From Thermoproteus tenax Kra 1 (GTDB lineage: Archaea; Thermoproteota; Thermoprotei; Thermoproteales; Thermoproteaceae), in contig NC_016070.1 of NCBI RefSeq assembly GCF_000253055.1, forward strand, positions 1,710,001-1,742,000: 32,000 bases of DNA, given 5' to 3'. Below, piece after piece: positions 3,979 to 26,678 of the stretch (position 1 is the first letter of the stretch; every line of letters starts with the position of its first letter). Under the pieces are notes generated by a model. It was not told the DNA's origin, ran no database searches, and saw only the letters and a list, made by a program, of their open reading frames with translations. The position numbers were made by a program, and so were the translations under genes.

Positions 3979-3997
3979 ACGCCGTTGCACTGTTGGC

Positions 3998-6618: not shown

Positions 6619-7435
6619 AGCCCAGAATGACGCCCAAGTCCTTGCCGGCGTTGCTCCATTCCCTCAGTTGTAGTTCGATGTAGGCCCTCTGCCTTTCCTC
6701 CCAATCCTCCAGCCACTGCCGAGTGTACCTTAGCCTTGCCCTCCAAACTTCGCGCTCCTCCTCTCTGTAGATTACTCTATTGTTCTCCTCGACTACGGTG
6801 GGCACTTTGACCACCTCTCTGTAGATATCCAGTAGCCCGTCCGCCACAGCCTGGAGGACTCTCGAGTAAAGCCTGTGTTCGTAAATCAACACTCTGTCCG
6901 CGATCAGCTCGATCTTGCGCTCGTAGGGCAACTCTAGGGCATAGATATCGCCTATATACACAGGCCATTGGTCCAGAATGGGCCCTCCGTCCACAGATTC
7001 ATCGACCAAGTGAACAGTTGGTCCAGTCACTCTGGCGCCGGATTTGTAGACCTCCATGTGAACCCTCAGTCCATACATCCCCTTGCCTCCAGCGAAGGGC
7101 AACAGCGAGGGGTGTATGTTGAGGACCCTCCATTTGAACTTCTCCAACACGGCGCGTCCCAGAATATAGTCATAGCCGGCGAGGGCCACATAGTCGACTC
7201 CGCTGTCCCTTAGAGCTTGCGCTATTTCCTCCTCCCTTTTAGGCCGCGGCACTCCCTTATGTTTTATGTAGAGCGACTCAATTCCGTATTCCTCTGCGAT
7301 CTTTCGGACTGGCGCATCCTGATCGCTGTAGATCAACAGGGCGATATCCACCCCCCTCAACACGCCGAGCCTTATGTGGTCCACTATAGCCTTAAAGTTC
7401 GTGCCTCGCCACGACGCCAAGATCCCCAGCCTCAT
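6602..7435 (-). CDS. purN: Phosphoribosylglycinamide formyltransferase PurN with a C-terminal extension of about 70 aa
   Basis: Shows GILASWRGTNF, NIHPSLLP, and GPTVHLVDESVDGGPIL. At 277 aa it is longer than the roughly 200 aa usual for PurN. Confidence 0.85.
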   Translation of the reverse strand: MRLGILASWRGTNFKAIVDHIRLGVLRGVDIALLIYSDQDAPVRKIAEEYGIESLYIKHKGVPRPKREEEIAQALRDSGVDYVALAGYDYILGRAVLEKFKWRVLNIHPSLLPFAGGKGMYGLRVHMEVYKSGARVTGPTVHLVDESVDGGPILDQWPVYIGDIYALELPYERKIELIADRVLIYEHRLYSRVLQAVADGLLDIYREVVKVPTVVEENNRVIYREEEREVWRARLRYTRQWLEDWEERQRAYIELQLREWSNAGKDLGVILGYGRLD

Positions 7436-8532
7436 GCCTTGACCGCCATGCGGTCTCTCTCCTTGAGCACAAGGCGGGGGAACCTGCGCCCGTACAACAT
7501 AGCCAAGACCCGTAGTGCCTTCTTCACCGCGTCGCTCACGTCGGCCCCCGTCACGTTCACGTGGCCCATTTTCCTCCTCGGCGTGGCCCGCGCCTTATGG
7601 TACCAGTACACTCTGCCTAATTTCTCAAGCTCAACCCAAGGTATCTCTTCTGCGTTGAGCCCCAGTATGTTCACCATGGCGACGCTAGGCGTATATCTAG
7701 GCAGTCTGAGGCCCAGGCCGAGGACGGCCCTAACGTGGGTCTCAAACTGGCTTACGTCTGTCTCGAGAGTCCAATGGCCTGTGTTGTGGACTCTGGGTGC
7801 TATCTCGTTGACCAATATTCTGCCGTCTCTAGCCTCGAAGAACTCCACGGCCAACACTCCAACGTATTTCCTCGCCTCGGCTATCTTCGCTACGACTTCC
7901 TCGGCCTCCTTCGGCGCTTGCGTTGGGGCAAAGCTCCAGACCAGTATGCCGTCGACGTAGTAGTTCTGGGCCGGCGGATAGTAGTAAATGTCGCCGTCTT
8001 CAGTTCTGGCGGCTACTATTGAGAACTCCCTCTTGATATCCACGAGCTCCTCGACTAATAGCTCACCTCTGAGCTGTCTGATGCGGCCGGCCATGCTGGG
8101 GTATACATACTGGCCCTTACCGTCGTAGCCGCCGGAGGGCTCCTTGACTACAGCTCTTCCGAACGTCTCTGCCATCTTCACTGCCTCTTCTCCTCCCTTA
8201 GCCACAGCCCATCTAGGAGTCGGGATCCCCAGCGAGTTGAGGAAGTTCCTCTCGTCTATTCTGCTCCTCTTTATAGACAAGTACTCAAGCGGCGGCCTCA
8301 GCTTTCCGCGCCTCTCTGCGTATTCGGCCACCCTAAAATCGACGTTCTCAAATTCGAAGGTCACATAGTCCGCCAGATCGACGGCCGCTAGAGGATCCTG
8401 GACTGCTCTGCCGGCCCTCAACGCGGGGGCCTCAGGGTTTTCATCGTAGACGTAAATCTCTGCTGGCAACCGGGCGCTCTCCCAGATCATCATGAGGGCT
8501 AGTTGACCTCCGCCTAAGATCAACAGGCGCAT
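7432..8532 (-). CDS. purK: N5-carboxyaminoimidazole ribonucleotide synthase PurK
   Basis: Shows MRLLILGGGQLALMM, an ATP-grasp core, and APRVHNTGHWT. Confidence 0.9.
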   Translation of the reverse strand: MRLLILGGGQLALMMIWESARLPAEIYVYDENPEAPALRAGRAVQDPLAAVDLADYVTFEFENVDFRVAEYAERRGKLRPPLEYLSIKRSRIDERNFLNSLGIPTPRWAVAKGGEEAVKMAETFGRAVVKEPSGGYDGKGQYVYPSMAGRIRQLRGELLVEELVDIKREFSIVAARTEDGDIYYYPPAQNYYVDGILVWSFAPTQAPKEAEEVVAKIAEARKYVGVLAVEFFEARDGRILVNEIAPRVHNTGHWTLETDVSQFETHVRAVLGLGLRLPRYTPSVAMVNILGLNAEEIPWVELEKLGRVYWYHKARATPRRKMGHVNVTGADVSDAVKKALRVLAMLYGRRFPRLVLKERDRMAVKA

Positions 8533-9231: not shown

Positions 9232-11334
9232 ATGGGCCTTAGGGACGACGAGTGGCAGCTCATAAGACTAAAGCTGGGGAGAGAGCCCACTAAAGCCGAG
9301 AGAGCCATATTCGAGTCTCACTGGTCTGAGCACTGCTCATACAAGTCTACTCGTTCTTGGCTCAAGCTCCTTCCGACGAAGGCGCCCTGGGTTCTGAGGG
9401 GCCCCGGCCTAGACGCCCCTCTGATAAAAATAACCGACCGCCTCCTTGTCACTTTCAAGATAGAGTCGCACAATCACCCGAGCGCGATAGATCCGTACAA
9501 CGGCGCAGCAACAGGTGTTGGCGGCATAATTAGAGATATACTTACCGTTAGGGCGAAGCCGGTCGCTCTTTTAGTGAACCTACACTTCGGACCCCTTGAC
9601 GATCAACATGCCAGGTGGATCGCGCGAAATGTGGTGAGAGGCATATCCGACTACGGGAACAGAGTCGGAGTGCCGGTAGTTGGCGGCGATACGATCTTCG
9701 ATCAATCGTTCACAAGAAACCCGATAGTCCTCGCCACCTGCGTGGGGGTCGTGGAGGAAGAAGCTGTGCCTAAGGGCGACATAGCGCCGGGCGACTTCCT
9801 CTTAGTGGCCGGCTCCTATACAGACCGTAGCGGGCTTGGAGGGTCGGCGTTTGCGAGCAAGGGCTTGAGCGGCGAGTCGGAGGAGGATCTAGGCGCGGTC
9901 CAGGTGGCAGATCCTCTGATGGGCAAGCTCATCATAGACTTAGTGCAGGAGGCGAGGGGTTGCGTCAAGTACATAAAGGACTTAGGAGGGGGAGGGCTGG
10001 CCACCGCCGCCGTGGAGTTGGCCGAACAGACGGGCCTCGGTCTAGAGTTGGACCTAGACAACGTGCACCTCGCCGATCCCACTATGGAGCCGGCTGAAAT
10101 ACTGGCGTCAGAGACGCAGGAGCGTATGGTGTTTGTAGTAGACGCGAAAGGCCTCGAGTGTCTCAAGAGGCTGGCCGATAAGCTCGATGTACCTATATCC
10201 GTCGTTGGACGCTTCACTGAAGCGCCCGGCGTAATGGTCAGGTGGAAGGGTCAGAAGGTGGCCGAGATACCGCCAGAGCTCTACAGAGCGCCCGACGTGA
10301 GGTGGCCCATGCGTGAGAACAAGAGGAGCGGGACTCTCGAAATCCCCTTTGTGCCCATTGAGAAGACAGCAGAGCTCGTCCTCTCCTCGCCCAATGTGGC
10401 AGACAAGGCCATAATCTATACTCAGTTTGACTCGACCGTCGGCGTTAGGACAGTGTTTAGACCAGGCGAGGCAGATGCCGCTGTAGTGAAACTGTTTGAG
10501 GAGGGCAACATAGGCGTGGCCATCAAGGGCGAGAGCAACCCGAGGTACTCATATCTCGACCCCTATCTAGGTGCAATCAATTCTTTCGTCAAAGCCTATA
10601 GGAACGTGGCCTCCGTTGGCGCAAAGCCATTGGCCGCCGTCGATTCGATAAACGTCGGCAATCCCGAGAAGCCGGATAGATATTGGCAGTTTGTTGAATC
10701 GGTAAGAGGAGTGGCCGATGCGGCGAGAAGCTTGGGAGTGCCAGTCGTAGGAGGGAAGGTGAGCCTATATAACGAGGACGAAGAAGGAAACCCTATAAGG
10801 CCTGTGGTCGCCGTAGTTATATTGGGCAAGCTAGACGACATCGCTCACGCCAGGAGGGCTATATGGCACGACGGAGACGTCGTAAGGATCCTCGGTACAA
10901 CGAGGCCAGAGTTGGGCGGCTCCGAGTACCTGTGGAGGGTATTCGGCGTTGTTGAGGGCGAACCGCCGATCGTGGACTTTAGACAAGAGCTACAGTTGGC
11001 GGAATTGCTCCCCTCCCTGGCCCCCAAGGTCCATGGCATCCACGACGTGGGGCTCGGCGGCGTGTTAGTCGCGCTTGCCAAAATGGCTAGAGCCAGCGGT
11101 GTGGGCGCCGAGATAGACCTATGCAAGATCCCCGCGACGGACGCCAGACTGGACTATCTGGCCTACAGTGAATCCAACGGGAGAGTCCTCATAGCGGCCG
11201 AAGAGGATGCGGACGTGCCCGGCGTGCCTTTAGGCAGAGTCTGGGGGGACAAGCTGGTGGTGAAATGCGGGGAGAACGTGCTATTCGCAATAAAGCTCGA
11301 GAGGCTGAGCGAGCTCATGTCGCTCAAACTATGA
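9232..11334 (+). CDS. purL: Phosphoribosylformylglycinamidine synthase II PurL
   Basis: A 700-aa protein showing [23 protein letters not shown] and a duplicated PurM-like domain architecture. Confidence 0.95.
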
Positions 11335-11675: not shown

Positions 11676-12416
11676 GTGCTTGAGGGAGAAGGCCTCAGCT
11701 TTGGCTACGGCAACTTTAGAGTATTTGAAGACGTAAATCTATCTATCGGCGAGAGGGAGATCGCTGCGATCGTAGGCCCTTCCGGGATAGGCAAGTCCAC
11801 TCTGCTCAGAATTCTCGGCGGCTTTCTCAAGCCTAATTCTGGCGTAGTCAGGCTCTTAGGGGAACCTGTCGTCAGACCGACGCCTAAGATAATGCTAGTG
11901 CATCAGTCTATTGTGACGTTCCCTTGGATGACGGCGTTGGAGAACGTGATGTTGGGGCTCCAACATTTGAGGCTCGATAGAGAGGAGGCGGAGAGGGAGG
12001 CTAAGAGGATGTTGGAGTTGGTCGGGCTCAAGGGCTTTGAGAACTTTTATCCGAAGGAGCTGTCGGGCGGAATGAGACAGAGAGTGGCTATAGCCAGGGC
12101 GCTGGCGGCGAGACCATTGGTGTTGCTCATGGACGAGCCCTTCAGCCACTTGGACGAGCTAACGGCGGAGAACCTACGCCACGAGATATACAGTATACTC
12201 TTCGGCGGGGAGACCTCTCTGAAGAGCGTAGTGCTCGTCTCACATAACTTGTACGAGGTGGTGGAGCTGTCCGATGTTGTCTACGTCCTAAATGGGCGTC
12301 CGGCGCACGTAGTGGACATAGTCAGGATAGATCTCCCCAGGCCCCGGAACCCTAAGGAGCCGGAGTTCACTAAGTACGTCGACGCACTCTATGCGGCGCT
12401 TACTGCCAAACTATGA
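11676..12416 (+). CDS. ABC transporter ATP-binding protein, NitT/TauT (nitrate/sulfonate/taurine) type
   Basis: Shows Walker A GPSGIGKST, the signature LSGGMRQR and Walker B LLMDEPFSHLD. It has a GTG start. Confidence 0.85.
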   Translation: MLEGEGLSFGYGNFRVFEDVNLSIGEREIAAIVGPSGIGKSTLLRILGGFLKPNSGVVRLLGEPVVRPTPKIMLVHQSIVTFPWMTALENVMLGLQHLRLDREEAEREAKRMLELVGLKGFENFYPKELSGGMRQRVAIARALAARPLVLLMDEPFSHLDELTAENLRHEIYSILFGGETSLKSVVLVSHNLYEVVELSDVVYVLNGRPAHVVDIVRIDLPRPRNPKEPEFTKYVDALYAALTAKL

Positions 12417-14032
12417 ACGTCTATCTGACTTTAGTCCTGGCCACTCTGGCAACTACGGCTAGAGTTTTCGCATTAATTGGAGCCTCTATAGTCACAGGTT
12501 GGCTGCTTGGCTATCTAGCCATTAAGAGTAGAGTGTTCGAGAACCTCTACACCTCCTTGATTGGAGTATTCGAGTCTGTGCCCGTCTTCAGCTTCTTTCC
12601 GGTCGTTCTAGTTCTATTTGTCAGCGGCATAGGAGGCTATCTCGGAGTGGAGCTGGCGGCCGACTTCCTAGTTTTCACAGCAGTAGTCTGGAACATCTGG
12701 ATCGGCATCTACCAAGCCTTTAAGACAGTCCCGCGAGAGATGTTGGAGGTGGCAGAGAACCTCAGATTCGGCTTCTTAAAGAAAATGAGGTATCTATATA
12801 TCCCCTACTCTATACCGAGGATAGCGGCAAATCTTCTCCCGAGCTTTGCCGATGCTTACTTCTACATAACAGTAAGCGAGGTCTTCTCGGTGGGGTCGTC
12901 CACATATCAAGTGTTCGGGATAGGCTCCGCCATAGCCCAGCTTGCGGCCAGTGGCGCCCCTCTGAGTCTCTACCTCCTAGCATTGGCCATACTGTCCATT
13001 GCTGTGAGCCTCTCCGTTTATGCGATCAGAGAGTTCGCCGACTACGCCGCGGCCAAATACGCAGTTGATACGTCTGTGCCTATAAGAAGGAGGAGGTTCA
13101 TACCGCCCCGGGCCGCAGGTGCCTTCGGTGGATCTCTCGCCCGCATAGCCAGAAACATAGCGACGACTTATAGGCAGATGGCCCGACAGAGGAGGCCCCC
13201 GCCCGAGAGGGAGAGGAACTACGACAAGCTTCTGAGACCTATCGGCATCGTAGTGGGCGTAGTGCTCCTATCCCTGATACTTTATGGCGCAATCGAGGTA
13301 ATAAAGTCAACGCCTTGGCGGACTTGGGAGAGCCTCTTTGCGAGGACCCCATCGGTAATTCCGGCCATCTTGGCTGATTATGCGAGGGTGTTCATCATCG
13401 CCTTGCTCTCTACGGCTCTAGCCGTCACACTCGGCTACTATCTCGTAACTCACCCGAGCATAGAGCGCGTTATGGTGCCCGTGATACAAACGTTCGCCGC
13501 CTATCCCGCCCCTGTGTATTTCCCCATCATCTTCGCCGCTACGTACGCCGCGCTGTACGGGGCGTTGGGCTACTACGCCAACGAGGTCTACGTCATCGCG
13601 CTCGGCTTTATCTCCACGTTCTACTACGTCTTCTATAGCTTTTGGATGGGCCTAAAGGCCGTTCCTCACGAGGTGTGGGAACTTATGGAGAACTTGGACA
13701 TGCCCTATACTAAAAAAATGGCCAAGATACTTCTGCCGGGCACATTGCCCTACCTTATCTCTGGACTATCTTCCACTATAAACAGCGCGTGGGGTGGTCT
13801 CGCTATAGGGGAGTACTGGCCTGACATAATCAGAGGCGAGACGCTTCAGGTTAAGACAGGGCTTATGAAGCTGATCACATACTCGACGGCCCAAGGCGAC
13901 GTGGCCCTCGCCGCATGGGCCTCCCTCTTGTTCGCTGTGATCGTAGTCTTATTCTCTATCTTCTTCACGAGGAGAATGATGGATTTGGCTATGAAGAAGT
14001 ATATAATGGAGGAGGCCGTATTTGCCGCATAG
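12413..14032 (+). CDS. ABC transporter permease, fused tandem of two permease domains
   Basis: A 539-aa polytopic protein with two EAA-type loops (EVAENLRFGFLKKMRYLYIP and ELMENLDMPYTKKMAKILLP). Its start overlaps the ATPase stop by 4 nt. No substrate-binding protein gene is adjacent. Confidence 0.8.
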   Translation: MNVYLTLVLATLATTARVFALIGASIVTGWLLGYLAIKSRVFENLYTSLIGVFESVPVFSFFPVVLVLFVSGIGGYLGVELAADFLVFTAVVWNIWIGIYQAFKTVPREMLEVAENLRFGFLKKMRYLYIPYSIPRIAANLLPSFADAYFYITVSEVFSVGSSTYQVFGIGSAIAQLAASGAPLSLYLLALAILSIAVSLSVYAIREFADYAAAKYAVDTSVPIRRRRFIPPRAAGAFGGSLARIARNIATTYRQMARQRRPPPERERNYDKLLRPIGIVVGVVLLSLILYGAIEVIKSTPWRTWESLFARTPSVIPAILADYARVFIIALLSTALAVTLGYYLVTHPSIERVMVPVIQTFAAYPAPVYFPIIFAATYAALYGALGYYANEVYVIALGFISTFYYVFYSFWMGLKAVPHEVWELMENLDMPYTKKMAKILLPGTLPYLISGLSSTINSAWGGLAIGEYWPDIIRGETLQVKTGLMKLITYSTAQGDVALAAWASLLFAVIVVLFSIFFTRRMMDLAMKKYIMEEAVFAA

Positions 14033-14056
14033 TACACTGAAACTTTCTGCCAACTG

Positions 14057-14069
14057 TACTATAAAAATT
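14057..14069 (+). promoter_or_regulatory. TATA-like box for the TGT-fold/QueF-L pair
   Basis: A TACTATAAAAATT box is centred about 24 nt upstream of the GTG at 14088. Confidence 0.45.
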
Positions 14070-14087
14070 CGTCGGATAAAATGACCA

Positions 14088-15065
14088 GTGAAGATAATTT
14101 TGGGAACGCCGGTGAGGACAGAGCCCAAGCCCTGGCTCTATTTCGAGGTAGAGTCTATAATGGTCAACGCCATGGAGGCCGACGAGAGGGCGAGGGCCAT
14201 CACCGGATTCGAGGGAGAGCTGTGGGTCGACTCGGGCGGCTACCAGGTACTCAAAAGAGGCCTCGAGGTATCGCCCTACGCCTTGGCGGAGAGATACAGA
14301 AGAATTGGTTGCGATGTTTGTCTCTCCCTCGACGTACCGCCGGCACCATCGGACGACCCCGCGACGGCCCAACGCAAGTTTGAAACGTCCTATAGGAACT
14401 GGAGGATCCTCAGATCGGAGCTCCCGGAGGCCCGCATAATGCCCGTGATACACGTGTATCCCGACGAGCGCCTCTTCGCGCGTTGGCTCAGCGCCTACGA
14501 AGATGCCGAGGAGCTCGCCATAGGGGGCGCGGTGCCCTACGTGTTGATAGCCAGAGGAGCTCCGTCGAACTCAAGGGAGCTCGCCATGAGGCTGTTCGCG
14601 ATGGCGAGGGAAAGGTTCGGAGGAAGACTGCATCTATTAGGTATGGGGAGCCCCTCCGTCTCTGCCACGCTGGAGATATTGGGGATAGACAGCGCCGACA
14701 GCGCCACGTGGAGACTGAAAGCTGCGTACGGGAAAGTAGTACTGCCTGGCGGAGGCGAGAGACACGTAACCAGCAGAGACGTTAATTTCGGCAGACGTAA
14801 GGCGAGGGAGGAGGAGCTGGAGGAGCTCTACGCCTATTTGAGATCCTCGGGCTTCCCGCTCCTGGACGGCTACGACGACTTCAAGTCGCGTTTGAGGGCC
14901 AGCTTCGAATACAGAGCGTTGGTCAACGCCTGGGTTATCTTGAGGAGCAGATCTCCTCCTCGCTCGGCTGTGTTCAAGAAGCTTTATTTGTGGGCCTTGG
15001 AATGGGCCCATGGCCCTAAGGCTCGCGAAGAGGCCGAGCAGAGTCAAGCTCAGAGGAAGGGCTGA
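14088..15065 (+). CDS. TGT-fold (tRNA-guanine transglycosylase / DpdA-like) protein, minimal form
   Basis: Shows WVDSGGYQV and LHLLGMGSP...GIDSADSATW, which match the two catalytic-Asp segments of TGT-family TIM barrels. It has only two Cys (CDVC), so I see no C-x-C-x2-C...H zinc site. At 325 aa there is no room for a PUA domain. It has a GTG start about 24 nt downstream of a TATAAAAA box. Confidence 0.65.
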   Translation: MKIILGTPVRTEPKPWLYFEVESIMVNAMEADERARAITGFEGELWVDSGGYQVLKRGLEVSPYALAERYRRIGCDVCLSLDVPPAPSDDPATAQRKFETSYRNWRILRSELPEARIMPVIHVYPDERLFARWLSAYEDAEELAIGGAVPYVLIARGAPSNSRELAMRLFAMARERFGGRLHLLGMGSPSVSATLEILGIDSADSATWRLKAAYGKVVLPGGGERHVTSRDVNFGRRKAREEELEELYAYLRSSGFPLLDGYDDFKSRLRASFEYRALVNAWVILRSRSPPRSAVFKKLYLWALEWAHGPKAREEAEQSQAQRKG

Positions 15066-15342
15066 GGCCATCTGTCCTATCTCCAAGAGCGTAGATCAGT
15101 ACGAGGTCGAGGTTGAGTATATACCGAGAGAGTCGGCGCTTCTCATAGAGAAGTTCCAAGAGATCTTGCAGAGCTATAGAGGAGTCGAGATACTACACGA
15201 GGAGCTAGCCGTGGATATAGCGGAGAAGATAAAGTCAATAATATCTCCCTCGTATATTAAGGTCGTCGTTAAGTCCAACTATAGGGGGATATACATTGAG
15301 GCAATCTACGAGGTAGGCGGACAGCCGGCCATCTACATCTAA
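15010..15342 (+). CDS. QueF-like T-fold protein (crenarchaeal archaeosine synthase type, QueF-L)
   Basis: A 110-aa protein with the QueF layout ICPISKSVD, EVEYIP, IEKFQEILQSYRG and ILHEEL. The QueF NADPH motif E(S/L)K(S/A)hK(L/Y)(Y/F/W) is not conserved. It overlaps the end of the TGT-fold gene by 56 nt. Confidence 0.7.
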   Translation: MALRLAKRPSRVKLRGRAEAICPISKSVDQYEVEVEYIPRESALLIEKFQEILQSYRGVEILHEELAVDIAEKIKSIISPSYIKVVVKSNYRGIYIEAIYEVGGQPAIYI

Positions 15343-15372
15343 GAATTTTTATGGCACCTTCAGTTAGGGCCG

Positions 15373-16251
15373 ATGATCGTGGTGGAGGAGCTTGAGAGAA
15401 AGTTCGGCCAAGTTGAGGCGCTAAGAGGCGTCAGCTTCTCGGCCGGCTCGGGCAAGGTAGTATCGGTGTTGGGCCCCAACGGCGCCGGCAAGACGACCCT
15501 CGTGAGGATCTTGATAACCGAACTGATGCCCACTAGAGGGAGGGCGTTGGTGGCAGGCCACGATGTAGTGAAGGAGGCCGAGGCAGTAAGGAGGAAGATC
15601 GCGGCGGTTCCACAGGAGGGCTCCCCTATAGGCTTTCTAACGCCCATTGAGTTCGTCTACGCCTACTTGCTCCTCAGAGGATATCCGAGGCGGGAGGCGC
15701 GACGAAGGGCAATTGAGGCTATCCGAGAGCTGGGGCTTTCTGAGGTGAAGGACAGAGAGATCCAGTTCTTATCGGGGGGCACCAAGAGGCGCGTCCTGCT
15801 CGCCTCAGTTCTGGCGGCCGACGTAGAGGTGGTGTTCTTAGACGAGCCGACGACGGGCTTAGACGTGATCTCGAGAAGGGTTGTGTGGAACGCGGTTAGC
15901 GCTTTAAGGAGGAGGGGCACCACCGTGTTGCTCACCACTCACTACGTGGAAGAGGCACAAGTTCTCAGCGACCATGTTGTGCTGCTAAATAGAGGGAAGG
16001 TGGTAGACCAAGGCCCTCCCGAGTCTTTGATCGAGAAGGTACCGGGCAAATTTGTGGTAGAGGCATACGCGCCCAGAGAGCTTCCCAACAAGCCCCATAT
16101 GACTATCGGCGATAGGGCGATCTTCTTTTTGGACAAGCCACAAGAGCTCGCCGAGGAGTTGGTCAAGAGCGGGGCCAAGGTGAGCATAAGGGCCAAGTCG
16201 CTTGAGGACTACGTGTTGTTAAAGATAGGGGCGATCCAGGAAGAGACATGA
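15373..16251 (+). CDS. ABC-2 type exporter ATP-binding protein
   Basis: Shows Walker A GPNGAGKTT, the signature LSGGTKRR and Walker B VFLDEPTTGLD. Confidence 0.85.
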   Translation: MIVVEELERKFGQVEALRGVSFSAGSGKVVSVLGPNGAGKTTLVRILITELMPTRGRALVAGHDVVKEAEAVRRKIAAVPQEGSPIGFLTPIEFVYAYLLLRGYPRREARRRAIEAIRELGLSEVKDREIQFLSGGTKRRVLLASVLAADVEVVFLDEPTTGLDVISRRVVWNAVSALRRRGTTVLLTTHYVEEAQVLSDHVVLLNRGKVVDQGPPESLIEKVPGKFVVEAYAPRELPNKPHMTIGDRAIFFLDKPQELAEELVKSGAKVSIRAKSLEDYVLLKIGAIQEET

Positions 16252-16982
16252 AGAAGTTACTTAGAGACATACTAGTCATAGGGTGGCTGAACGGCTGGGT
16301 CCCTCTGTTGAGGGGATGGGTGTGGCTCCTTGCAAATGTCATAACGCCGATCACTTTCTTAATCATCCTGTGGATCTACGGCGGCGAGACAGGCCTCAAG
16401 TGGGGCCTCCTCGGAGGCTTGATATGGACAGTGGCCTCCAACGGGATATCCCTCATCGGCGATGCCACTTTCTATAGAATAGAGATAAAGTTCCAACAAA
16501 TGTTAGTAGCGGCGCCGGTAAGCCCCGTGGCCTACGCCTTGGGCCTCGCGCTGAGCTCGTTCATTTTCGCCGCACCTGCTGTTGCGTTCTTCACAGGCTT
16601 TCTGGCGCTCTTGGGGGGCCTCACGCCGGCGGCGCTCGGGATATCGGCGGTTGTCCTGGCGTTGTTGTGGATCTCGACAGCGGGCTTGGGCTTCGTTGCA
16701 TCGACCTTCATAAACCAGATGAGATACGCGTGGGCGGTGCCCGGCATAATGTCCGCTGTTTTGTCGTCGTTGGCGCCAGTGTACTGGCCTGCCTCAATTC
16801 TCCCAGTAGAGTATCTCGGCTCACTCCTCCCCACAGGTGCTGCGGGGATATTGTGCCAGAGCGCCCTCGGTCTCGCCGAGTACCCCCCTAGCTTGTTGGC
16901 ATCGGCGTGGATCTCACTTTTTGCGTACTCAATAGTCTCGTTGTTGTTAACGGCTAAGGTGGCAAGGTGGAGAGAGCGTTGA
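16248..16982 (+). CDS. ABC-2 type exporter permease
   Basis: A 244-aa protein that is hydrophobic throughout, with about six predicted membrane spans. Its start overlaps the preceding ATPase stop by 4 nt. Confidence 0.75.
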   Translation: MKKLLRDILVIGWLNGWVPLLRGWVWLLANVITPITFLIILWIYGGETGLKWGLLGGLIWTVASNGISLIGDATFYRIEIKFQQMLVAAPVSPVAYALGLALSSFIFAAPAVAFFTGFLALLGGLTPAALGISAVVLALLWISTAGLGFVASTFINQMRYAWAVPGIMSAVLSSLAPVYWPASILPVEYLGSLLPTGAAGILCQSALGLAEYPPSLLASAWISLFAYSIVSLLLTAKVARWRER

Positions 16983-17024
16983 GGCCGACGGCAATACTTT
17001 AAAATTACACCGTGGCGCCCTTAT

Positions 17025-17444
17025 ATGAAGTACAGGCTTATGGACGTATTGGCGTGTCCCTACGACAAGACCTTCCCTCTAAAGCTCATAGTCATCAAGA
17101 GGACGGAACACCCCGAGAGGCAGTATACCTGGCCCCGCAAGCCGTTCTGCGAGGAGTACTGTTCCTATCGCGACCTCAAGATAAAGGAACATCCCAAGCC
17201 CGAGACGTTGCCGTGCGAGGAGTGCCACAGATGGGAGATAGAGACCGGAGTAATGTACTGCCCGGCCTGCGGGAGATGGTATCCAATCATTGAGGAGATA
17301 CCCAGGATGTTGCCGGATGAGCTCAGGAACGAGAAGGAGGAGGTTGAGTTCCTGAAGTCCATCAAGGCTGAGCTTGAGAAGGTCGCCCCAGATCTCGCCA
17401 AGAAGATACTCTACGAGGGGAAGCCCTTCCGCCTTAAAGAGTAG
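17025..17444 (+). CDS. Trm112-like zinc-ribbon protein carrying an inserted second Cys cluster
   Basis: Has the N-terminal LMDVLACPYDK and the C-terminal YCPACGRWYPIIEEIPRMLP, which are the Trm112/DUF343 signature. A roughly 55-aa insert carries CEEYC and CEEC. Confidence 0.6.
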   Translation: MKYRLMDVLACPYDKTFPLKLIVIKRTEHPERQYTWPRKPFCEEYCSYRDLKIKEHPKPETLPCEECHRWEIETGVMYCPACGRWYPIIEEIPRMLPDELRNEKEEVEFLKSIKAELEKVAPDLAKKILYEGKPFRLKE

Positions 17445-18367
17445 TTGAGCTCGTTGAGAAGCGTTTTGAACAAGTCTTTTGGCAAGCGGGCGCCTGCCGC
17501 GCTCGGATGGCCTCCGGCAGGGACCCTATATCGCCGCGAGAAATCTCTGAGGAACTCGTTTAAGTCGAAGCCTGAGGAGCGGAGGCTCAATACGTATATA
17601 TCCTTCCTGGTCTCCAAAGCTATTCCGACAGGCACCTTGGCCGTGCCCTTCGCCAATGTTGCCGCGAGCCCCAACGGGCCTGGCGGATCTATCACATATG
17701 CCACGAGTCCCTCGCGTACGATATTGTTGGGTACCCACTGGGCTAGTCTCTCGTTCTGTCTACTCTGCTCTATGGCTCTAGCCAGGAGCTCTTCGTGGGA
17801 GGACGGAGGCTTGTTCTCAGAAAGATGTCTCACGATATCTCTCTTCAGATCGTGGAGCCGCCTGGCCCCCTCGAGGCCCTGAGAGAGGACGCCTGCCTCG
17901 AAGTATATAACGCGCTTATCCCAACGGCCTAGCGCCTCCTCGACCCAGTCGGTGTTATCAAGGTAATCGCCGATGGCTCCGTAGAGGGCCACGCGGTCGT
18001 ATGTCTCAGGCAGGAGGCCCTCGACATATCTAAAGGCTAGCTCCGAAGCGGCGGCGCCCAGTTTATGGAAAATCTCGACGTTCGGAGGAGGAGAAAAGCT
18101 CGATGGAGGCGGGTGGTGGTCGATGTAGACGATGCGTCCGCGGTACTCCTCGAAGGCCCTCAGTATCTCAGGCGCCGCCCACTCGTCTATAGCGACGTCT
18201 ACTATATACACATCGCCCTTGGCGTACTCCTTAAAGTCGCCGAGAAGGCCGGCCGGATGCGTGAAGTACACATCTATCTGGTCGTAGATGCCGGAATAGG
18301 CAGCCTTGAGCAGAGCTGCTGAACATACGCCGTCGGAGTCCCCGTGGGCTAATATAGTCATCCGCAT
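17411..18367 (-). CDS. DHH/DHHA1 family phosphoesterase (NrnA/RecJ-like)
   Basis: Shows ILAHGDSDGVCS, YIDHHPP and GGHPSAAGA. I set the start at the ATG at 18367 because the longer tracked ORF runs across two tRNA genes. A CTTATTAAG box lies about 24 nt upstream. Confidence 0.8.
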   Translation of the reverse strand: MRMTILAHGDSDGVCSAALLKAAYSGIYDQIDVYFTHPAGLLGDFKEYAKGDVYIVDVAIDEWAAPEILRAFEEYRGRIVYIDHHPPPSSFSPPPNVEIFHKLGAAASELAFRYVEGLLPETYDRVALYGAIGDYLDNTDWVEEALGRWDKRVIYFEAGVLSQGLEGARRLHDLKRDIVRHLSENKPPSSHEELLARAIEQSRQNERLAQWVPNNIVREGLVAYVIDPPGPLGLAATLAKGTAKVPVGIALETRKDIYVLSLRSSGFDLNEFLRDFSRRYRVPAGGHPSAAGARLPKDLFKTLLNELNYSLRRKGFPS

Positions 18368-18398
18368 ACAGCCGACTAGTTCTCCGCTTAATAAGCTA

Positions 18399-18492
18399 CG
18401 GGCCCGGTGGGATTCGAACCCACGACCTACGGCTCGCTCCGGCGGCAACGCCGTAGAAGGCCGCCGCTCTATCCATGCTGAGCTACGGGCCC
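18399..18492 (-). tRNA. tRNA-Arg (anticodon UCU) with an intron of about 19 nt at the canonical 37/38 position
   Basis: The reverse complement folds as GGGCCCG-UA-GCUC..GAGC-G-GCGGC-CUUCUA[CGGCGUUGCCGCCGGAGCG]A-GCCGU-AGGUC-GUGGG-UUCGAAU-CCCAC-CGGGCCC-G. No CCA is encoded. Confidence 0.8.
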
Positions 18493-18550
18493 CAGCGCTA
18501 TCTAAATGTGGCTTTTTATGGTTTCCGCCTTGTTGTGAAGAGAACGCAGG

Positions 18551-18670
18551 CGGGCCCGGTGGGATTCGAACCCACGACCTACGGGTTTCCACGGGCGCCA
18601 CGCGCCCTTAAGAGCCTCGGCGGACTTAGACTGGTTCCACCGCCGCTCTACCAGGCTGAGCTACGGGCCC
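18551..18670 (-). tRNA. tRNA-Lys (anticodon CUU) with two introns, one in the anticodon stem region and one at 37/38
   Basis: The acceptor, D and T arms are canonical. Removing about 24 nt (UGGAACCAGUCUAAGUCCGCCGAG) and about 22 nt (AGGGCGCGUGGCGCCCGUGGAA) restores the stem GCGGG/CCCGU and the loop CUCUUAA. The exact splice positions can slide by 1-2 nt. Confidence 0.7.
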
Positions 18671-19433: not shown

Positions 19434-20201
19434 CTAGCGTGCCTCGCTCTGGCTCCGAGCTTTCGCCTCCTTGCGCGTTGAGATAAGCCATACCACTGTC
19501 TGAACCCAACCCGCCAATCTGCCCATCTTCTCCGATGCTTGGGCCCTCAGACAGTTCCTCCTGAGGGGGCACTCCTCGCACACGTAGCGAGCACACAGCT
19601 CTGCGCGGGGCGGAACTCCCTTAAGGCCCAGCTGGGGGGCATACCTTATGAAGTGTTTGTCCACAGGCACAGCAGTAGTATCCCCCGTGAACAAAAGGTA
19701 TAAGTCCGCCACCTTGGCCCCCACTCCTCTTATCCTCACTAAGTCCGACCTGGTTCTGGGCTTTGTCGAGAGGTACTCCCTCAGAGCCTCCGGCAACATC
19801 TTGAGTTGGTAGCTGTTGCCGAGTGCGGGGGCCGCCTCAGCTATATCGTTCAAGTCCTCAGAGCGCGAAAATAAAGCGCGCGTCCACTTGAGCACATTTG
19901 TGTGATAGCTTGTGTTCTGAGTCAAAAATGCTGCGACGAATATCAGCCCCTCATCGCCGGGCGATATAGAGAGCCCGACGCAACCTGCGTATCTCTCCAG
20001 AAGTCTTGTGACGCTCTCCTCGACGTCCTTGCTTAAATCGCCGATGTAGCGCCGTGGGTCGAACCATCTCCCTGAGAGGTGCGGATCATCGGCCACGTTA
20101 ACGCCCTTTCTGACGCCGAACCTCTTCACGTAGGTCTCGCCAGACTTCTCCACTAGTGTTAAAGTGAGACTGGGATAGAGCGTTAAGTCTAAACAGTTCA
20201 T
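19434..20201 (-). CDS. HhH-GPD superfamily DNA glycosylase-like protein (endonuclease III-like, with a C-terminal 4-Cys cluster)
   Basis: Shows FLTQNTSY and the HhH segment RIRGVGAKVADLYLL, followed by VPVDKHF (the EndoIII-like Lys and Asp positions). The C-terminal Cys cluster is C-x4-C-x2-C-x5-C (CARYVCEECPLRRNC). Confidence 0.7.
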   Translation of the reverse strand: MNCLDLTLYPSLTLTLVEKSGETYVKRFGVRKGVNVADDPHLSGRWFDPRRYIGDLSKDVEESVTRLLERYAGCVGLSISPGDEGLIFVAAFLTQNTSYHTNVLKWTRALFSRSEDLNDIAEAAPALGNSYQLKMLPEALREYLSTKPRTRSDLVRIRGVGAKVADLYLLFTGDTTAVPVDKHFIRYAPQLGLKGVPPRAELCARYVCEECPLRRNCLRAQASEKMGRLAGWVQTVVWLISTRKEAKARSQSEAR

Positions 20202-20965
20202 ATCATAGAAACAGGTACCCCCGAGGGGGTCACCGCTCTCGTCGGCTTAAGCCGCCGGGCCCTCATGAGCTTCACCACATGGGGGTAGAGGATAACGTAC
20301 TCGACGTCTATACATTCGGCGAGCTTCGGATGTATTCCGGCCAGAGCTCTCTCGAGCTCTCTGGCGCTTTCCTCCGTTGAGAAACCCAACATGGCGGCTG
20401 GGTATACATCTCTGCAAGGGGCCATTCCGGCATTGACCAAGTTACTGATAGCATCGAGCTGCCGACGAAAGTAGGCGCGGGGAGACATCGTTATCAGCTC
20501 GAACTCCTCCGGCGTCGCGCCCTTAATGGACACCCTCACGACGACGTTGGGAAAGGCGGCTAGCCGCCTTGCTAGCGTATCGTCGATCAAAATGCCGTTA
20601 GTCTCCACGACGAAGATATAGTCATGCGGTATCCCCTTAAGCACGCCTATCAGATGGTCGGCTGCTATCGTGGGCTCGCCCCCAGAGATCCTTAGCTGTG
20701 TGTAGCCCCTCGTCTTTGCGAGCTCCATTAACCTCTCGGCGACTTGTTCGGGCGCCAGAAAATCGCCAACGTCTAGCCTGAAGGACGAATTGCGCCACGC
20801 CCAGCACATGCCACACCTAAGATTGCAACCGACTATGTCGGCGGTCGCTATTCCGCCGTACCAACGGTCGAGCCTAAATCTGAAGTAGCGCCTTAGCGTC
20901 CTCTCTCCCTCCCTCTTCACAGCGAATTTCAACACCAGCTGCGTAAGAGCCTCTGGATCTATCAC
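20198..20965 (-). CDS. Radical SAM protein of unknown specificity
   Basis: Shows GCNLRCGMCW (the CxxxCxxC motif) and ISGGEPT. It has a GTG start about 24 nt downstream of an ATTTAAAA box. Its stop overlaps the start of the downstream glycosylase-like gene (ATGA). Confidence 0.8.
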   Translation of the reverse strand: MIDPEALTQLVLKFAVKREGERTLRRYFRFRLDRWYGGIATADIVGCNLRCGMCWAWRNSSFRLDVGDFLAPEQVAERLMELAKTRGYTQLRISGGEPTIAADHLIGVLKGIPHDYIFVVETNGILIDDTLARRLAAFPNVVVRVSIKGATPEEFELITMSPRAYFRRQLDAISNLVNAGMAPCRDVYPAAMLGFSTEESARELERALAGIHPKLAECIDVEYVILYPHVVKLMRARRLKPTRAVTPSGVPVSMI

Positions 20966-21237: not shown

Positions 21238-21789
21238 TTACGAGGTTAAAAGTAAGATGGACGCCGAAAAAGCGGGTTGTTTTGTCTTCTGGAGTAGCTC
21301 CCAGTACCTCCTCTTTGCCCATATCAGCGGCACGTTGTCTCTGTGGTCTGAGAAGCCGCAGACAGGGCAACGCATAACGCGCCTTCTTTCCTCCTCCATC
21401 TCTGCTCCACAGCGGGGGCAGACAGTTGAGTACAGTCTTTCCTCAAGATACGGCAGTCCGTACCACTGCGCGAGCGCTTGTAGGCGCCTCCTCAGCTGTC
21501 CCAAACCGTCTAGAAAGTGTTTCCTCACTCCGCTCCCGTCGCCCTCCTTCAGTTCCCGATAACTCTCCTCCTCCATCGTGTCCACCACGATCGCGGCCTG
21601 ATGCTCCCTCGCCAGCTTAATTATCTCGCCAACGACGTCTTTAACGACGCCTCTTATCTTTCTATACCGCCGAGACTTGAGGTGGCGGGCTCTCTCCTCG
21701 AGACGTCTCCTTCTGGCGGGGTCCGCCTCCCTCGCGGCCCGCTCGTCGAGACGGCTTATCTCCTCGTGGAGTCTCCTCAGTTCTCTCAC
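21238..21789 (-). pseudogene. tnpB: IS200/IS605-family TnpB (OrfB) C-terminal fragment
   Basis: Has the zinc finger and RuvC-III region (CPRCG...RCPVCGFSDHRDNVPLIWAKRRY), preceded by an Arg-rich helical segment and AAIVVDTMEE. It is only 183 aa, against about 400 aa for intact TnpB. A further TnpB-like piece (VVKAVYVNGDNRFG) lies upstream in another frame, around 21850-21960. Confidence 0.65.
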
Positions 21790-21988: not shown

Positions 21989-24900
21989 TCACCTCTTGAG
22001 AACCTCCTCGATAAACTCCTCGAATAGCTCGTCCAACACGGCTCTATAGTCCCTCCTGCCGTTCTCCACATCGTCCATGAACCTCTCAATGAGCCTCGTT
22101 CTCTCCTCGCTCACTAACTTCCCGAAATTGCTCTTGAGGTATTGGTAGACCTCTATGCCCCTCTTGGTCGGTATCATGAACTTGCGGCGCCCCCTCACCA
22201 CGACGTATCCCCTTTTTGAGAGCACCTCCAGGATCTTTGCGTAGGTGCTTGGTCTGCCGATACCCCTCTCCTTCATGAGCCGCAACACGTCGGCCTGCGA
22301 CAGGAGCTCTACGTGCCTTTTGGCATACGTTATTTTTATCGGCGACTCGCCCTCCCGCAGAGGCCTTGCCTCTTCAACAGTCCGATACATCCTCAAGAAG
22401 CCCTCCTCCTTTATTTCGACGACCCTCTCTACCTCAGCCTTATATCCGCCGGCCTCTACCTCATATTTCTCCACTCTGACCAACGCCTCGCGCATCTGGC
22501 TTGACATAAACCTCCTGAATATGAGCTCGTATGCTGCATAGTGGTTTCTCGTCAGCCTTATAGTCGGCTGTATTACGCCAGCCGCCACCAGTCCCCGTAG
22601 CTCCTCGGCGTCGATGGGCCTCGTGGGCCTTATCGCCTCGTGGGCGCCCTCCTCGCCGGTCGCCCACGGCCTGGCCTTGAAGAGATCGGCGCCGAACCTC
22701 TTGGATATATACTCCCTCGCTATACCGATGCCTGTGGCAGAGACTCTGGTGCTGTCCGTGCGGTGGTAAGTGATGAAGCCGCTTTCAAAGAGGTCCTGGG
22801 CGATGGCCATGGCCTGCTCAGCAGTTATTCCCAACTTATTCACGGCATCCCTCATGTATTCGTCCGTGGTATAGGGCGGTGGCGGCTGGAGAACCACCTC
22901 TCTGCCCTCAAGCCTCTTTATTCTGACGCGCCCCTCGCTCTTAAGAGCCTTGTAGGAGTCCTCTGGCAACGTCAGTCTAATTGAGCCGTCCTCCAGCTCG
23001 ATCGTTACATCGAACTTCCTCTCCGCCCTAGAGCTCTGATAACGTTCAACGATCCAACCGAGGACAGGGCTCTGTACTCTTCCCGCCGAGAGAAATGCGA
23101 GCCCGTGAGCCTCTTGAACTCTTCTGCTCAGCCCAAATCCTATCCACCTATCCTCAACTCTTCTGACCATCTGGGCCGCCACCATGGGCAAATTGACGTC
23201 CCTAGGCGAGGAGAGGGCATTGACTATGGCTCTCCGGGTCACCTCGTGGAACTCAATCCTCTTGATTGAGCCGACGTAAGGTCTCAACGCTAGATATACG
23301 TCGTACGCTATCTTCTCTCCCTCTGAATCTGGGTCGGTGCCCAACAACACAAGGTCGACCTCAGAGGCCAAGTTCCTAAGAGTTGAGATTATATCGAGGG
23401 GCTGGCAATTCTCCGGTACCTCCGTGTCGTCAACATACGAAGCCCCTGGACACTTATAGATTCTATTATAGACCGGAATATAGCCATCCTCGGTCTTGAA
23501 CACAGCGTAATCCTCTGGGCTATATATCTCCGAGAGGGTGCGCCCCACGGCTCTGAGGACCCTCTCTTTCTCGCTCGGCTCGATCTTCGCCAAACTGGTC
23601 GGAAGTTCGTAGATGTGCCCCATCGTCGCTATTACTGTGAGCATCATATCGCCCGTAGATACCTCGTAGGCCGGCACGCCGCCCACTATAAGCATATTGG
23701 GTCTTCCAAAGAACGACGCAATAGTCCTGGCCTTGGTGGGGGATTCGACCACCAACAACACGCTCTTCATGATATCTCTCGCCGAAAGCTCCTCCGGTTT
23801 GAAGCTGCCCGAAAGTATTCGTCTGATAGTTTCGCGGTCTGAGTCTACCTCCCTCAATATCTTATCTAGATCTGTCTCGGCTAAGTCGTAGAACTTGACT
23901 TCGTCGAACCTTAGCTCCAGCTCCCTCCTGAGCGCGTGCAAGACCTTCTCGTCGTCGACTAGAATAACGCTGAGACCTCTCGAGAGCCCACCTGCGTAGA
24001 GCCTTGACGTTCTGCCACTCCCTTGTATATATGTCGTCACATCGGGCAGTAACACGTAGAGCTGTCCATCTATGTAAGTCAGCTTCACCTCAGTGGAGGT
24101 CTCTATAGCTCTTTTTACATCGTCCCTAGAGAGTATCAAGCCGACGAACTCAACGGCCGACTTGACCACGTTTAATAGATACTCCTCGAAGGAGTTCTTA
24201 GGCCCCTCGGTCAGCACCTTCTCCAGACCTGCAGTATACGGCGCAATCCGCCTTAGTTGTGCAATCAATCTATCGGCCTTGAACTTCAACTCTTGAGGCA
24301 AGACTCCTCTCACGTTGTAGAGAAACGCAAGATAGGCAGGGGCCGAGAACTCGTCCAGCTTTACTCTGAACTTGAACTTGGGTATCCCCACGAAGATCAC
24401 GTATCTGATCACGTGCGGCATATCTATCCCTCTCACTAGCGCCGAGCGGGCAGAGGCGAGGCCCACCAATGCGTCCAATTCTCCTCTCTCGAAGGCCTCT
24501 AACACCTTGCGGCGGGGCCGGAAGAAGTGCTCCGCCTTGATCCCCTCTCCCTTGAGATATTCGACTAGTTCTCTGCCCAGATCTTTATCTTGTACATAGA
24601 TTATGCCGCCAGATCCGAGCCTTTTGACGAGGGCGGCCACCTGCGCCCTCGGATCCTCGGAGAGCTTTGCGTACACGTCGTATACGTTCCTAAGCCCCTC
24701 CGCCCTCCCGCCTACATCGAAGCCCAATAATTCTCTAAATAGGAGTAACCTAGTGGTTCTCCGCGCCTTCGCCAACGCCCCCGAGGCTATAAAGACGCCC
24801 AACTTGAGCCTGGCCTTCAGCCTTCTGAGCTCCTCCCTTTTCCTTTTTATCTCAACGTCGCTCTCCTCGAGCCCCTTTTCATCCCCGCCTAACATCTGCC

Positions 24901-25787: not shown

Positions 25788-26678
25788 CTACTTCTTAGCT
25801 TCAGATATCTTCTTGATCAATATCGGCACTATCTTATAAAGGTCCTCAACCACGCCGTAATCGGCGTACTGGAAGATGGGCGCGCTCGGGTCGGAGTTTA
25901 TAGCCGCTATTATCCTCGAGTCAAGTATGCCGGCTATGTGTTGTGGTTGACCTGAGATCCCGATCGCCAGATAGAGCTTGGGGCGCACCTTGTGTCCCGA
26001 CAGGCCGACCCAGTGGTCTTCCGAGAGCCACTTCAGATCAGCCGCTATGGGCCTAGAGCAGCCCACTTGGCCCCCCATTGCTCGCGCCAAATCGAACGCC
26101 ATGGCCAGATCCTCCCTCTTCTTAAACCCCCTTCCCACAGATACAATTATCTCGGCCTCCTCGATCTTGACGCCCCCAGACGCCTTAGGCTCAACGCCGC
26201 CTGTCTTAAACAACTGGATCGGCTGGGGCGTCAACTCGACCACTCTAGAGGGGACCTTTGGGGGCTCCCCCAAGAATTTGCCGGGGGCAACCGTCATGAC
26301 CAGCGGCCTTCTCGCTCTGATAGTAGCTATTGCCTTGTTCCCGAACACATATCTATCGGCTATGACCTCCTCCCCCTCGACTCTAAATGATATGACGTCC
26401 ACCAAGAATGATGCGCCTAGTCTCTGTGCCACGTAGGCGCCCAGCGTTCTTGAATTCTTAGTCGATGGCATAATGACGACATCGTAGTCCTTGGCCAACT
26501 GCAGAACTGCGCCCACTCTAATGCCCAGATCCCGCGGATCGCCTGAGATCTTGTATATCGTCTGTGCCCCCTCCGCCGCCTTCAGCTCGGCGTCGCCCAC
26601 GGCGACGGCCGAGACCTCTCCGACAATGGATGCCGCGTAGAGAGCCTCCTTGTTGGGGAAGACGACGAGAGACCTCAT
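25788..26678 (-). CDS. etfA: Electron transfer flavoprotein alpha subunit
   Basis: Shows the C-terminal FAD-binding signature PKLYLAIGISGQPQHIAGILDSRIIAAINSDPSAPIF. Confidence 0.85.
   Translation of the reverse strand: MRSLVVFPNKEALYAASIVGEVSAVAVGDAELKAAEGAQTIYKISGDPRDLGIRVGAVLQLAKDYDVVIMPSTKNSRTLGAYVAQRLGASFLVDVISFRVEGEEVIADRYVFGNKAIATIRARRPLVMTVAPGKFLGEPPKVPSRVVELTPQPIQLFKTGGVEPKASGGVKIEEAEIIVSVGRGFKKREDLAMAFDLARAMGGQVGCSRPIAADLKWLSEDHWVGLSGHKVRPKLYLAIGISGQPQHIAGILDSRIIAAINSDPSAPIFQYADYGVVEDLYKIVPILIKKISEAKK

Follow-up and report, generated by a model that had tools for sequence, protein, structure and literature searches.

A zinc-less DpdA-type transglycosylase encoded beside QueF-L in Thermoproteus tenax, with DNA as its probable substrate

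The present study concerns two overlapping genes carried by a 32,000-nt stretch of the Thermoproteus tenax Kra 1 genome (positions 1,710,001-1,742,000, hereafter called the window; position 1 is its first letter). Its two tRNA genes, which correspond in position to TTX_trna_24 and TTX_trna_23 in the genome paper, allowed the window to be mapped to this interval. The first gene of the pair encodes a protein of 325 amino acids (aa) having the fold of the tRNA-guanine transglycosylases (TGT), and the second one encodes a 110-aa protein of the QueF-L type. The locus comprises the following features.

Positions 14060-14067, forward strand: TATA-like box TATAAAAA, read directly in the sequence, with its centre about 24 nt upstream of the GTG codon of the 325-aa gene.
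Positions 14088-15065, forward strand: gene of the 325-aa TGT-fold transglycosylase, with a GTG start (open reading frame (ORF), profile, structure and homologue evidence).
Positions 15010-15342, forward strand: gene of QueF-L, a T-fold amidinotransferase of 110 aa, with an ATG start (matches to 5jyx and PF14489).
Positions 15010-15065, forward strand: 56-nt overlap of the two genes, read in different frames (ORF coordinates).

The same two overlapping genes are predicted by independent gene callers on three assemblies, and WP_231818699.1 matches the 325-aa product with 100% identity. In the original GenBank annotation, the protein (CCC82589.1) comprises 317 aa and starts eight codons later (14112 vs 14088). 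The alignments of homologues begin with MKI/MRV...LG, which supports the GTG start of the 325-aa version. Moreover, the TATAAAAA box would be compatible with the gene having its own promoter and a leaderless transcript. An initial annotation of this DNA, made from the sequence alone, had drawn attention to the overlap of the two genes. The overlap does exist. However, the C-terminal stretch of about 18 residues that it encodes in the 325-aa protein is not conserved among homologues; the overlap is therefore considered incidental.

By its fold and by its three-Asp arrangement, the 325-aa protein is a member of the TGT superfamily. The barrel segments recognized in the initial annotation are indeed present, WVDSGGYQV at residue 46, LHLLGMGSP at residue 181 and GIDSADSATW at residue 199. 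Profile searches return the ArcTGT model TIGR00432 (48.1 bits, E 5.6e-13, model positions 71-260 only) and, as the sole Pfam match, the TGT family PF01702 (20.1 bits), both of them under the respective equivalog cut-off (350 bits) and gathering score (26.3). Because the Pfam match lies below threshold, the family was defined from our own alignment. The best PDB match is ArcTGT from Pyrococcus horikoshii (1iq8), found by sequence with E 2e-11 over residues 84-270 and retrieved again by Foldseek (E 9e-13) with an AlphaFold2 (AF2) model of high confidence (pLDDT 93); many bacterial and eukaryotic TGTs follow at about 1e-10. Aligned with 1iq8, the protein has D48 opposite Asp95, D82 opposite Asp130 and D204 opposite Asp249; IGGAVP is matched with IGGVVP, and H122 with Gln169. 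By homology, the active site can be proposed to use D48 as the general acid/base and D204 as the nucleophile; D82 and H122 would recognize the base, Y52 would stack, and the G146-G-A-V-P150 motif would also be part of the site. An unrelated TIM barrel, envisaged at the outset as what would undo the TGT assignment, and a spurious ORF are both rejected in view of homologues down to E 1e-150 with invariant TGT catalytic residues.

In several respects, the protein departs from the archaeal enzyme to which it is most similar. It shares with ArcTGT (1iq8; TTX_1934 in T. tenax) the equivalents of Asp95, Asp130 and Asp249 and, presumably, the double-displacement chemistry. ArcTGT differs by having a zinc site and C1, C2 and PUA domains, and by Gln169 (Gln203 in Zymomonas mobilis) at the position of His122. 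As initially noted, the only cysteines of the 325-aa protein are C75 and C78 (CDVC) and no CxCxxC...H zinc site is found; the alignment of homologues has no conserved Cys. It was also rightly described as too short for PUA-type domains, since neither the Pfam scan nor the AF2 model, in which the chain ends in helices past the barrel, reveals a PUA, C1/C2 or other tRNA-binding domain. Further, the Pfam scan shows neither PF20314 (DUF6610, the DpdA4 of haloarchaeal viruses) nor DUF5591, and the NCBIfam search at E<=1 gives no match to ArcS (NF040592).

The initial annotation had left two possibilities, a lineage-specific, stripped-down ArcTGT or a DpdA-like paralog, and had proposed looking for a full-length ArcTGT in the same genome. 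Such a gene is found about 42 kb upstream: tgtA (TTX_1934, 1,680,673-1,682,196, arCOG00989) encodes a protein of 507 aa according to the genome paper table (PMC3189178 supplement). It follows that the 325-aa protein represents a paralog and not the sole ArcTGT of T. tenax. Most probably, position G15 of tRNA is served by the separate 507-aa TgtA and not by the 325-aa protein. A second TGT-like gene was detected by tblastn, with ArcTGT and its relatives as queries, neither in the window nor in the 81 fetched loci. It may be added that T. tenax TgtA is shorter than the P. horikoshii enzyme (507 aa vs 582 aa) and that tgtA is followed, about 3 kb downstream, by a gene for a stand-alone PUA-domain protein (TTX_1934, TTX_1939). 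The genome paper table also lists, elsewhere in the genome, the preQ0 pathway genes QueD and QueE as well as Gat-QueC. Thus, with Gat-QueC and QueF-L (TTX_0505 is among the loci named), T. tenax has two candidate archaeosine synthases beside two transglycosylases.

Relatives of the 325-aa protein were collected with a word-indexed search (167 sequences) and with a HMMER scan using the family profile (1407 representatives at E<=1e-3). Scores against the family hidden Markov model (HMM) are bimodal. The upper group contains 142 sequences with at least 250 bits, which come from Thermoproteales, Pyrodictiaceae, Ignisphaera and Njordarchaeota, and CxCxxC occurs in none of them. In this zinc-less clade, D48, S49, D82, H122, H182, D204, W208, K211, E224, R276 and N280 are essentially invariant. 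The second group, at 100-180 bits, contains 121 relatives, 99 of which keep CxCxxC. A histidine is found at the position of H122 in nearly all members of both groups (141/142 in the zinc-less clade, 115/121 in the zinc-containing sister group). A scan of species-representative genomes yielded 109 loci in Thermoproteales, Pyrodictiaceae, other Desulfurococcales, Ignisphaera and Njordarchaeota; the gene-context counts given below come from ORFs clustered at the 80 loci that were kept. Within Thermoproteales, identity drops with taxonomic distance and local synteny is retained within genera. For these two reasons, the zinc-less clade looks vertically inherited in this order.

The closest relatives having some link to experiment are viral. 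A tblastn search of phage and archaeal-virus genomes retrieves STSV1, STSV2 and STSV4 (34% identity, E 2e-34, 88% coverage), as well as about 25 rudiviruses (E about 1e-12). The STSV2_15 protein (YP_007348259) scores 248 bits against the family HMM over positions 1-291 and keeps the signature motifs. In a neighbour-joining tree, a rough method, STSV2_15 and SIRV2 gp13 (NP_666547) branch within the zinc-less clade and not with the zinc-containing group. Consistently, PHROG 887 gives 77 bits with the 325-aa protein, above every cellular model, and the best structural match among viral models (BFVD) is a rudivirus TGT-like protein (E 3e-17, TM 0.70/0.77). A scan of viral contigs with the family patterns gave no match, these patterns being too strict for viral variants. 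Both YP_007348259 and NP_666547 were listed as DpdA, and STSV2_16 as ArcS (Hutinet et al., 2019); the DUF5591-only protein was later renamed ArcS2 (Cui et al., 2023; PMC10516641). The same work found a 7-deazaguanine, dCDG, in the DNA of STSV2. The viral and the cellular proteins share a zinc-less, PUA-less architecture of about 290-325 aa and the motifs WVDSGGYQ, LDxP, PVIH, GGxVP, HxLG, DSxDS, (W/Y)RxKA, PGxGER and RxLVNAW. In STSV2, the next gene encodes the DUF5591-only ArcS2, which is 38-40% identical to the DUF5591 proteins found beside cellular clade members. However, the T. tenax gene resides in the chromosome, keeps its synteny within the genus and is apparently inherited vertically, and its partner is QueF-L instead of ArcS2. 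Of the 80 cellular loci that were kept from the scan, none belongs to Sulfolobales, the hosts of these viruses.

A comparison was also made with the bacterial enzymes. Catalysis by Salmonella DpdA involves Asp95 and Asp256, while Asp130 and His181 read the base (PMC10164549), and a conserved histidine has been named as a hallmark of DpdA (PMC6884629). In a local alignment with the Salmonella Montevideo enzyme (7ui4), the overall match to which is weak, 'viHv' falls on 'VAHG' and 'DstDsst' on 'TSIDSTT'. Taking into account a 20-residue tag offset, the family H122 then corresponds to His181 and D204 to Asp256. Bacterial DpdA (TgtA5) and the 325-aa protein thus have in common the TGT barrel, the three catalytic or recognition aspartates, the histidine replacing the TGT glutamine and the lack of a PUA domain; the GGxVP motif is found in the 325-aa protein, in ArcTGT (IGGVVP) and in Salmonella DpdA (MGGMVP). 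There are also clear differences. Bacterial DpdA has about 400 aa, and reviews place a zinc-binding motif in its supplementary domain (PMC5699537). It works with the ATPase DpdB, whereas many members of the archaeal clade adjoin a HerA-like ATPase instead. Finally, the bacterial Dpd systems reside in mobile islands, and no DpdB, DpdC or DpdD-K accompanies the T. tenax protein; neither was a DpdB- or DpdC-like neighbour found at the clade loci examined. The loss of zinc ligands has a precedent among DpdA enzymes, since the DpdA of phage 9g lacks two of the four (PMC5699537).

Pairs made of a DpdA and a preQ0-tailoring enzyme are documented in phages: DpdA1 and Gat-QueC of phage 9g give dG+, DpdA2 and ArcS2 of Vibrio phage nt-1 give dG+, and DpdA with a QueF-like protein gives dPreQ1 in Dp-1 (PMC5699537, PMC6884629, PMC10516641). 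As in T. tenax, a PUA-less TGT-like transglycosylase stands there beside an enzyme that modifies preQ0. Nevertheless, the phage pairs are viral anti-restriction modules with their own preQ0 genes, whereas the T. tenax pair is cellular and its QueF-L is orthologous to the archaeal tRNA G+ synthase.

The identification of the 110-aa protein as QueF-L, suggested initially from the lack of an NADPH motif, is well founded. It aligns over its whole length with Pyrobaculum calidifontis QueF-L (5jyx; E 8e-37, residues 3-110 vs 2-109) and matches the Pfam QueF family (PF14489, 34.9 bits for a cut-off of 27.3). The protein has the unimodular size, the catalytic Cys22 is kept and the QueF NADPH motif E(S/L)K(S/A)xK(L/Y)(Y/F/W) is absent. 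From these sequence features, it appears as a clear ortholog of the characterized P. calidifontis enzyme, which converts preQ0-tRNA into archaeosine with ammonium as the donor (PMC5485725). QueF-L adjoins the TGT-like gene in all six Thermoproteus genomes and is co-directional with it in five. The two genes overlap by about 47-53 nt at three of the other Thermoproteus loci (L002, L004, L006) and are separated by a gap at another one (L003). As a separate observation, QueF-L is found beside the ABC-2 pair also at two Pyrobaculum loci.

Across the clade, linkage to 7-deazaguanine or DNA-metabolism genes is met repeatedly; in T. tenax, QueF-L is the only such neighbour. A HerA-like (DUF87) ATPase gene is adjacent to the TGT-like gene at 17 loci, found in Vulcanisaeta, Caldivirga, other Thermoproteales, one Desulfurococcales and one Njordarchaeota genome. 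A stand-alone DUF5591 gene, the one related to STSV2 ArcS2, lies directly downstream at five loci and within a few kb at three more; the exact PC-X3-KPY-X2-S-X2-H motif is found in 3/8 of these proteins. In Pyrodictiaceae, a radical SAM gene is directly upstream of the zinc-less TGT-like gene (14 loci), with FolE about 3 kb upstream. Another neighbour that recurs, at 9 Thermoproteaceae loci, is a Trm112-like gene. Two further observations concern individual genera. At seven Pyrobaculum loci, two conserved genes without Pfam matches are divergent upstream of the TGT-like gene, one encoding about 160 aa and the other about 350 aa, the latter amidohydrolase-like by eye. In four Vulcanisaeta JCM drafts, the HerA-like ATPase is split into two or three ORFs, which could reflect either pseudogenization or frameshift errors of the draft assemblies.

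The zinc-containing sister clade is found in Korarchaeia, Bathyarchaeia, Methanomethylicia, Aenigmatarchaeota and Asgard archaea. The order HerA-like ATPase (about 545 aa), a protein of ~1400 aa, DUF5591 protein (about 255 aa) and zinc-containing TGT-like protein (about 345 aa) was found in 6/6 sampled loci (L086, L088, L090, L093, L094, L095). This conserved gene set was met in Korarchaeia, Bathyarchaeia, Methanomethylicia and Asgard archaea. NurA is encoded farther upstream wherever the flank was long enough to show it, which was the case for three loci. QueC/QueT genes occur near two loci, and toxin-antitoxin genes or PLD nucleases are also nearby. The HerA-like ATPase of this gene set is homologous over its full length to that found beside the zinc-less members (E about 1e-22). 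The ~1400-aa protein gives sub-threshold hints only of a P-loop NTPase and of a restriction-endonuclease fold. Beside zinc-less members, neither NurA nor the ~1400-aa protein was detected by BLAST within 6 kb. We found no published description of this HerA-like/~1400-aa/DUF5591/TGT-like module. As a whole, the gene set of the sister clade looks like a 7-deazaguanine DNA modification-restriction system, an archaeal counterpart of bacterial Dpd. Lacking the nuclease-type partners of its sister, the zinc-less clade does not resemble a mobile restriction-modification island; it looks instead like an 'orphan' modification enzyme.

Altogether, the 325-aa protein is very probably both a member of the DpdA-type clade and a paralog of TgtA. 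The homology with viral DpdAs, the DpdA-type histidine and the linkage with HerA-like, NurA and ArcS2-like proteins in the clade and its sister all agree with the DpdA-like paralog envisaged initially. Our favoured interpretation, to which we would give a probability of roughly 0.55, is that of a cellular, vertically inherited DpdA-type transglycosylase, with DNA as the probable substrate and QueF-L as a possible finishing enzyme. Indeed, the viral members of the clade, the DpdA-type histidine, the lack of RNA-binding domains and the DNA-enzyme partners in the clade and its sister clade argue for DNA, which we predict, at about even odds or slightly better, to be the actual substrate.

According to this interpretation, the reaction might proceed as follows. 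Asp204 would attack C1' of the target guanine nucleotide, with Asp48 serving as general acid/base. Asp82 and His122 would read the base's Watson-Crick edge, and Tyr52 would stack on the base. Guanine would then leave the covalent enzyme-nucleic acid intermediate and preQ0, supplied by QueD, QueE and Gat-QueC, would enter as the incoming base. Finally, QueF-L may convert the inserted nitrile into a formamidine (archaeosine) via the thioimide chemistry of Cys22. That QueF-L finishes the product of the 325-aa enzyme is an attractive idea, based only on the adjacency of the two genes at the genus level, and it may be so; T. tenax also has Gat-QueC.

It should, however, be noted that a number of observations weigh against a DNA-modifying pair. 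Concerning the 325-aa protein itself, its profile score is nearer to ArcTGT than to bacterial DpdA: the NF041059 model of bacterial DpdA is not among its NCBIfam matches at E<=1, the match with 7ui4 has an E value of 0.19, and a PADLOC scan of both proteins of the pair returned nothing. Beside the T. tenax gene, there is no HerA-like, NurA or DUF5591 gene, and the whole window is devoid of a HerA-like gene. The viral argument also has its weaknesses, because the STSV and SIRV proteins are called DpdA by inference and the modified base of STSV2 DNA was identified as dCDG, at 0.04% of G, and not as preQ0 or G+ (PMC10516641). In addition, conservation throughout a lineage by vertical descent, together with a Trm112-like neighbour, would fit a housekeeping RNA modification as well. 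As to QueF-L, its known substrate is preQ0-tRNA (PMC5485725). Its adjacency to the TGT-like gene is restricted, among the 80 loci, to the genus Thermoproteus; in some Pyrobaculum, QueF-L is 3-8 kb away, and it is absent from the neighbourhood elsewhere. Even within Thermoproteus, in sp. AZ2 (L005), QueF-L is on the opposite strand (10936-11265, reverse strand), convergent with the TGT-like gene with a 4-nt overlap; the pair is thus not co-transcribed throughout the genus. At the same locus, the upstream ABC genes are likewise inverted. Thus, the compact module proposed in the initial annotation, inserting a 7-deazaguanine and then amidinating it, is still plausible, but the restricted adjacency, the inversion in AZ2 and the presence of Gat-QueC make it weaker than was stated.

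Several of these observations lead to consider RNA as the target. The 325-aa protein would then insert preQ0 (or the G+ base) into an RNA site other than that of TgtA, for instance another tRNA position or rRNA, and QueF-L would finish the product, the whole being a housekeeping activity of Thermoproteota. The decrease of identity with taxonomic distance and the synteny within genera are those of a core gene. The recurrence of the Trm112-like gene at the 9 Thermoproteaceae loci, the use of preQ0-tRNA by the characterized QueF-L and the better score with ArcTGT than with bacterial DpdA point in the same direction. We regard an RNA target as a serious alternative, although a less likely one than DNA. 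A protein of only 325 aa has no PUA or other domain to bind tRNA and carries the DpdA-type histidine in place of glutamine. Moreover, its nearest relatives having any experimental link are the viral DpdAs, and the partners met elsewhere in the clade and in its sister comprise DNA enzymes (HerA-like, NurA) and ArcS2-type proteins devoid of PUA.

Two other explanations deserve consideration. One may imagine that the protein is the tRNA G15 transglycosylase of the lineage after loss of the zinc site and of the C-terminal domains. ArcTGT is its best PDB and NCBIfam match, and the catalytic aspartates and the GGxVP motif are kept. The existence of TTX_1934 in the same genome, a score of 48 bits compared to the 350 bits required, and histidine at the position of Gln169 make this view extremely improbable, all the more so as a tgtA ortholog is found in Pyrobaculum arsenaticum and a zinc-less member in the closely related Pyrobaculum oguniense. 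It may also be asked whether the protein is a transglycosylase at all. It could serve as a binding partner or scaffold for QueF-L or TgtA, by analogy with QTRT2 of the eukaryotic TGT, or act as a glycosylase salvaging 7-deazaguanine nucleosides or nucleotides. The zinc subdomain, which mediates TGT dimerization (PMC5699537), is lost; the gene overlaps tightly with QueF-L in T. tenax; ABC transporter and purine biosynthesis genes are found around. However, the three catalytic aspartates, His122 and the stacking aromatic residue are invariant over 142 sequences, which is unexpected for a scaffold, and the linkage with QueF-L is genus-specific. Such a role is therefore improbable.

Around the pair, seven tightly spaced and co-directional genes occupy positions 11676-17444 of the forward strand, in the order ABC ATPase, BPD-type permease, TGT-like protein, QueF-L, ABC ATPase, ABC-2 permease and Trm112-like protein. 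Upstream are the purine biosynthesis genes purD (2533-3990, reverse strand), purK (7432-8532, reverse strand) and purL (9232-11334, forward strand). Downstream, the reverse strand carries two intron-containing tRNA genes (18399-18492 and 18551-18670), Arg-TCT and one called Lys-CTT by the genome paper. A mechanical ORF of 396 aa (17411-18601, reverse strand) crosses these tRNA genes; the DHH/DHHA1 gene proper is shorter and encodes 318 aa (17411-18367). The reverse strand also encodes a 255-aa radical SAM protein with a CX3CX2C motif (20198-20965), which shares a BLAST cluster with the radical SAM gene of Pyrodictiaceae. It was considered as a possible QueE or RaSEA and left without assignment, as it has no NCBIfam equivalog (best score of about 49 bits) and no QueE chain among its PDB matches; it is distinct from the annotated QueE candidate TTX_0291 (215 aa, elsewhere in the genome). 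Farther downstream on the reverse strand are a TnpB-like fragment (21238-21789), reverse gyrase (21989-25660) and the alpha and beta subunits of an electron transfer flavoprotein (25788-27451). A provirus origin of the region was also rejected, the G+C content being even throughout and synteny being retained within the genus.

DpdA enzymes, and pairs of DpdA with an amidotransferase, are already known in bacteria and viruses. A cellular, vertically inherited and zinc-less clade in Thermoproteota appears to be new, as do its pairing with QueF-L and its relation to the module with HerA-like, ~1400-aa, ArcS2-like and DpdA-like proteins (with NurA in 3/6 loci). Tentatively, a broader proposal may be put forward. 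The chromosomal DNA of Thermoproteales, and of the other hyperthermophilic Thermoproteota carrying the gene, might contain dPreQ0 or 2'-deoxyarchaeosine made by an orphan DpdA-type enzyme; the QueF-L of Thermoproteus might act on both DNA and tRNA; and the clade might be the reduced descendant of a widespread archaeal module combining NurA, the HerA-like ATPase, the ~1400-aa protein, ArcS2 and DpdA, which would constitute a restriction-modification system based on 7-deazaguanine.

7-Deazaguanines in DNA are documented for bacteria, with the Dpd islands, and for viruses. For cellular archaea, we found no report of such a base in the chromosome; a DpdA is no more than suggested for a haloarchaeal host in one paper (PMC6884629). 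If DNA is the substrate of the 325-aa protein, a whole order of hyperthermophiles would carry archaeosine-type genomic bases as a stable trait, QueF-L would have a second substrate, and a clear cellular source would be at hand for the viral DpdAs of crenarchaea. Should RNA be the target, the zinc-less clade would represent a new enzyme for the insertion of 7-deazaguanine into RNA.

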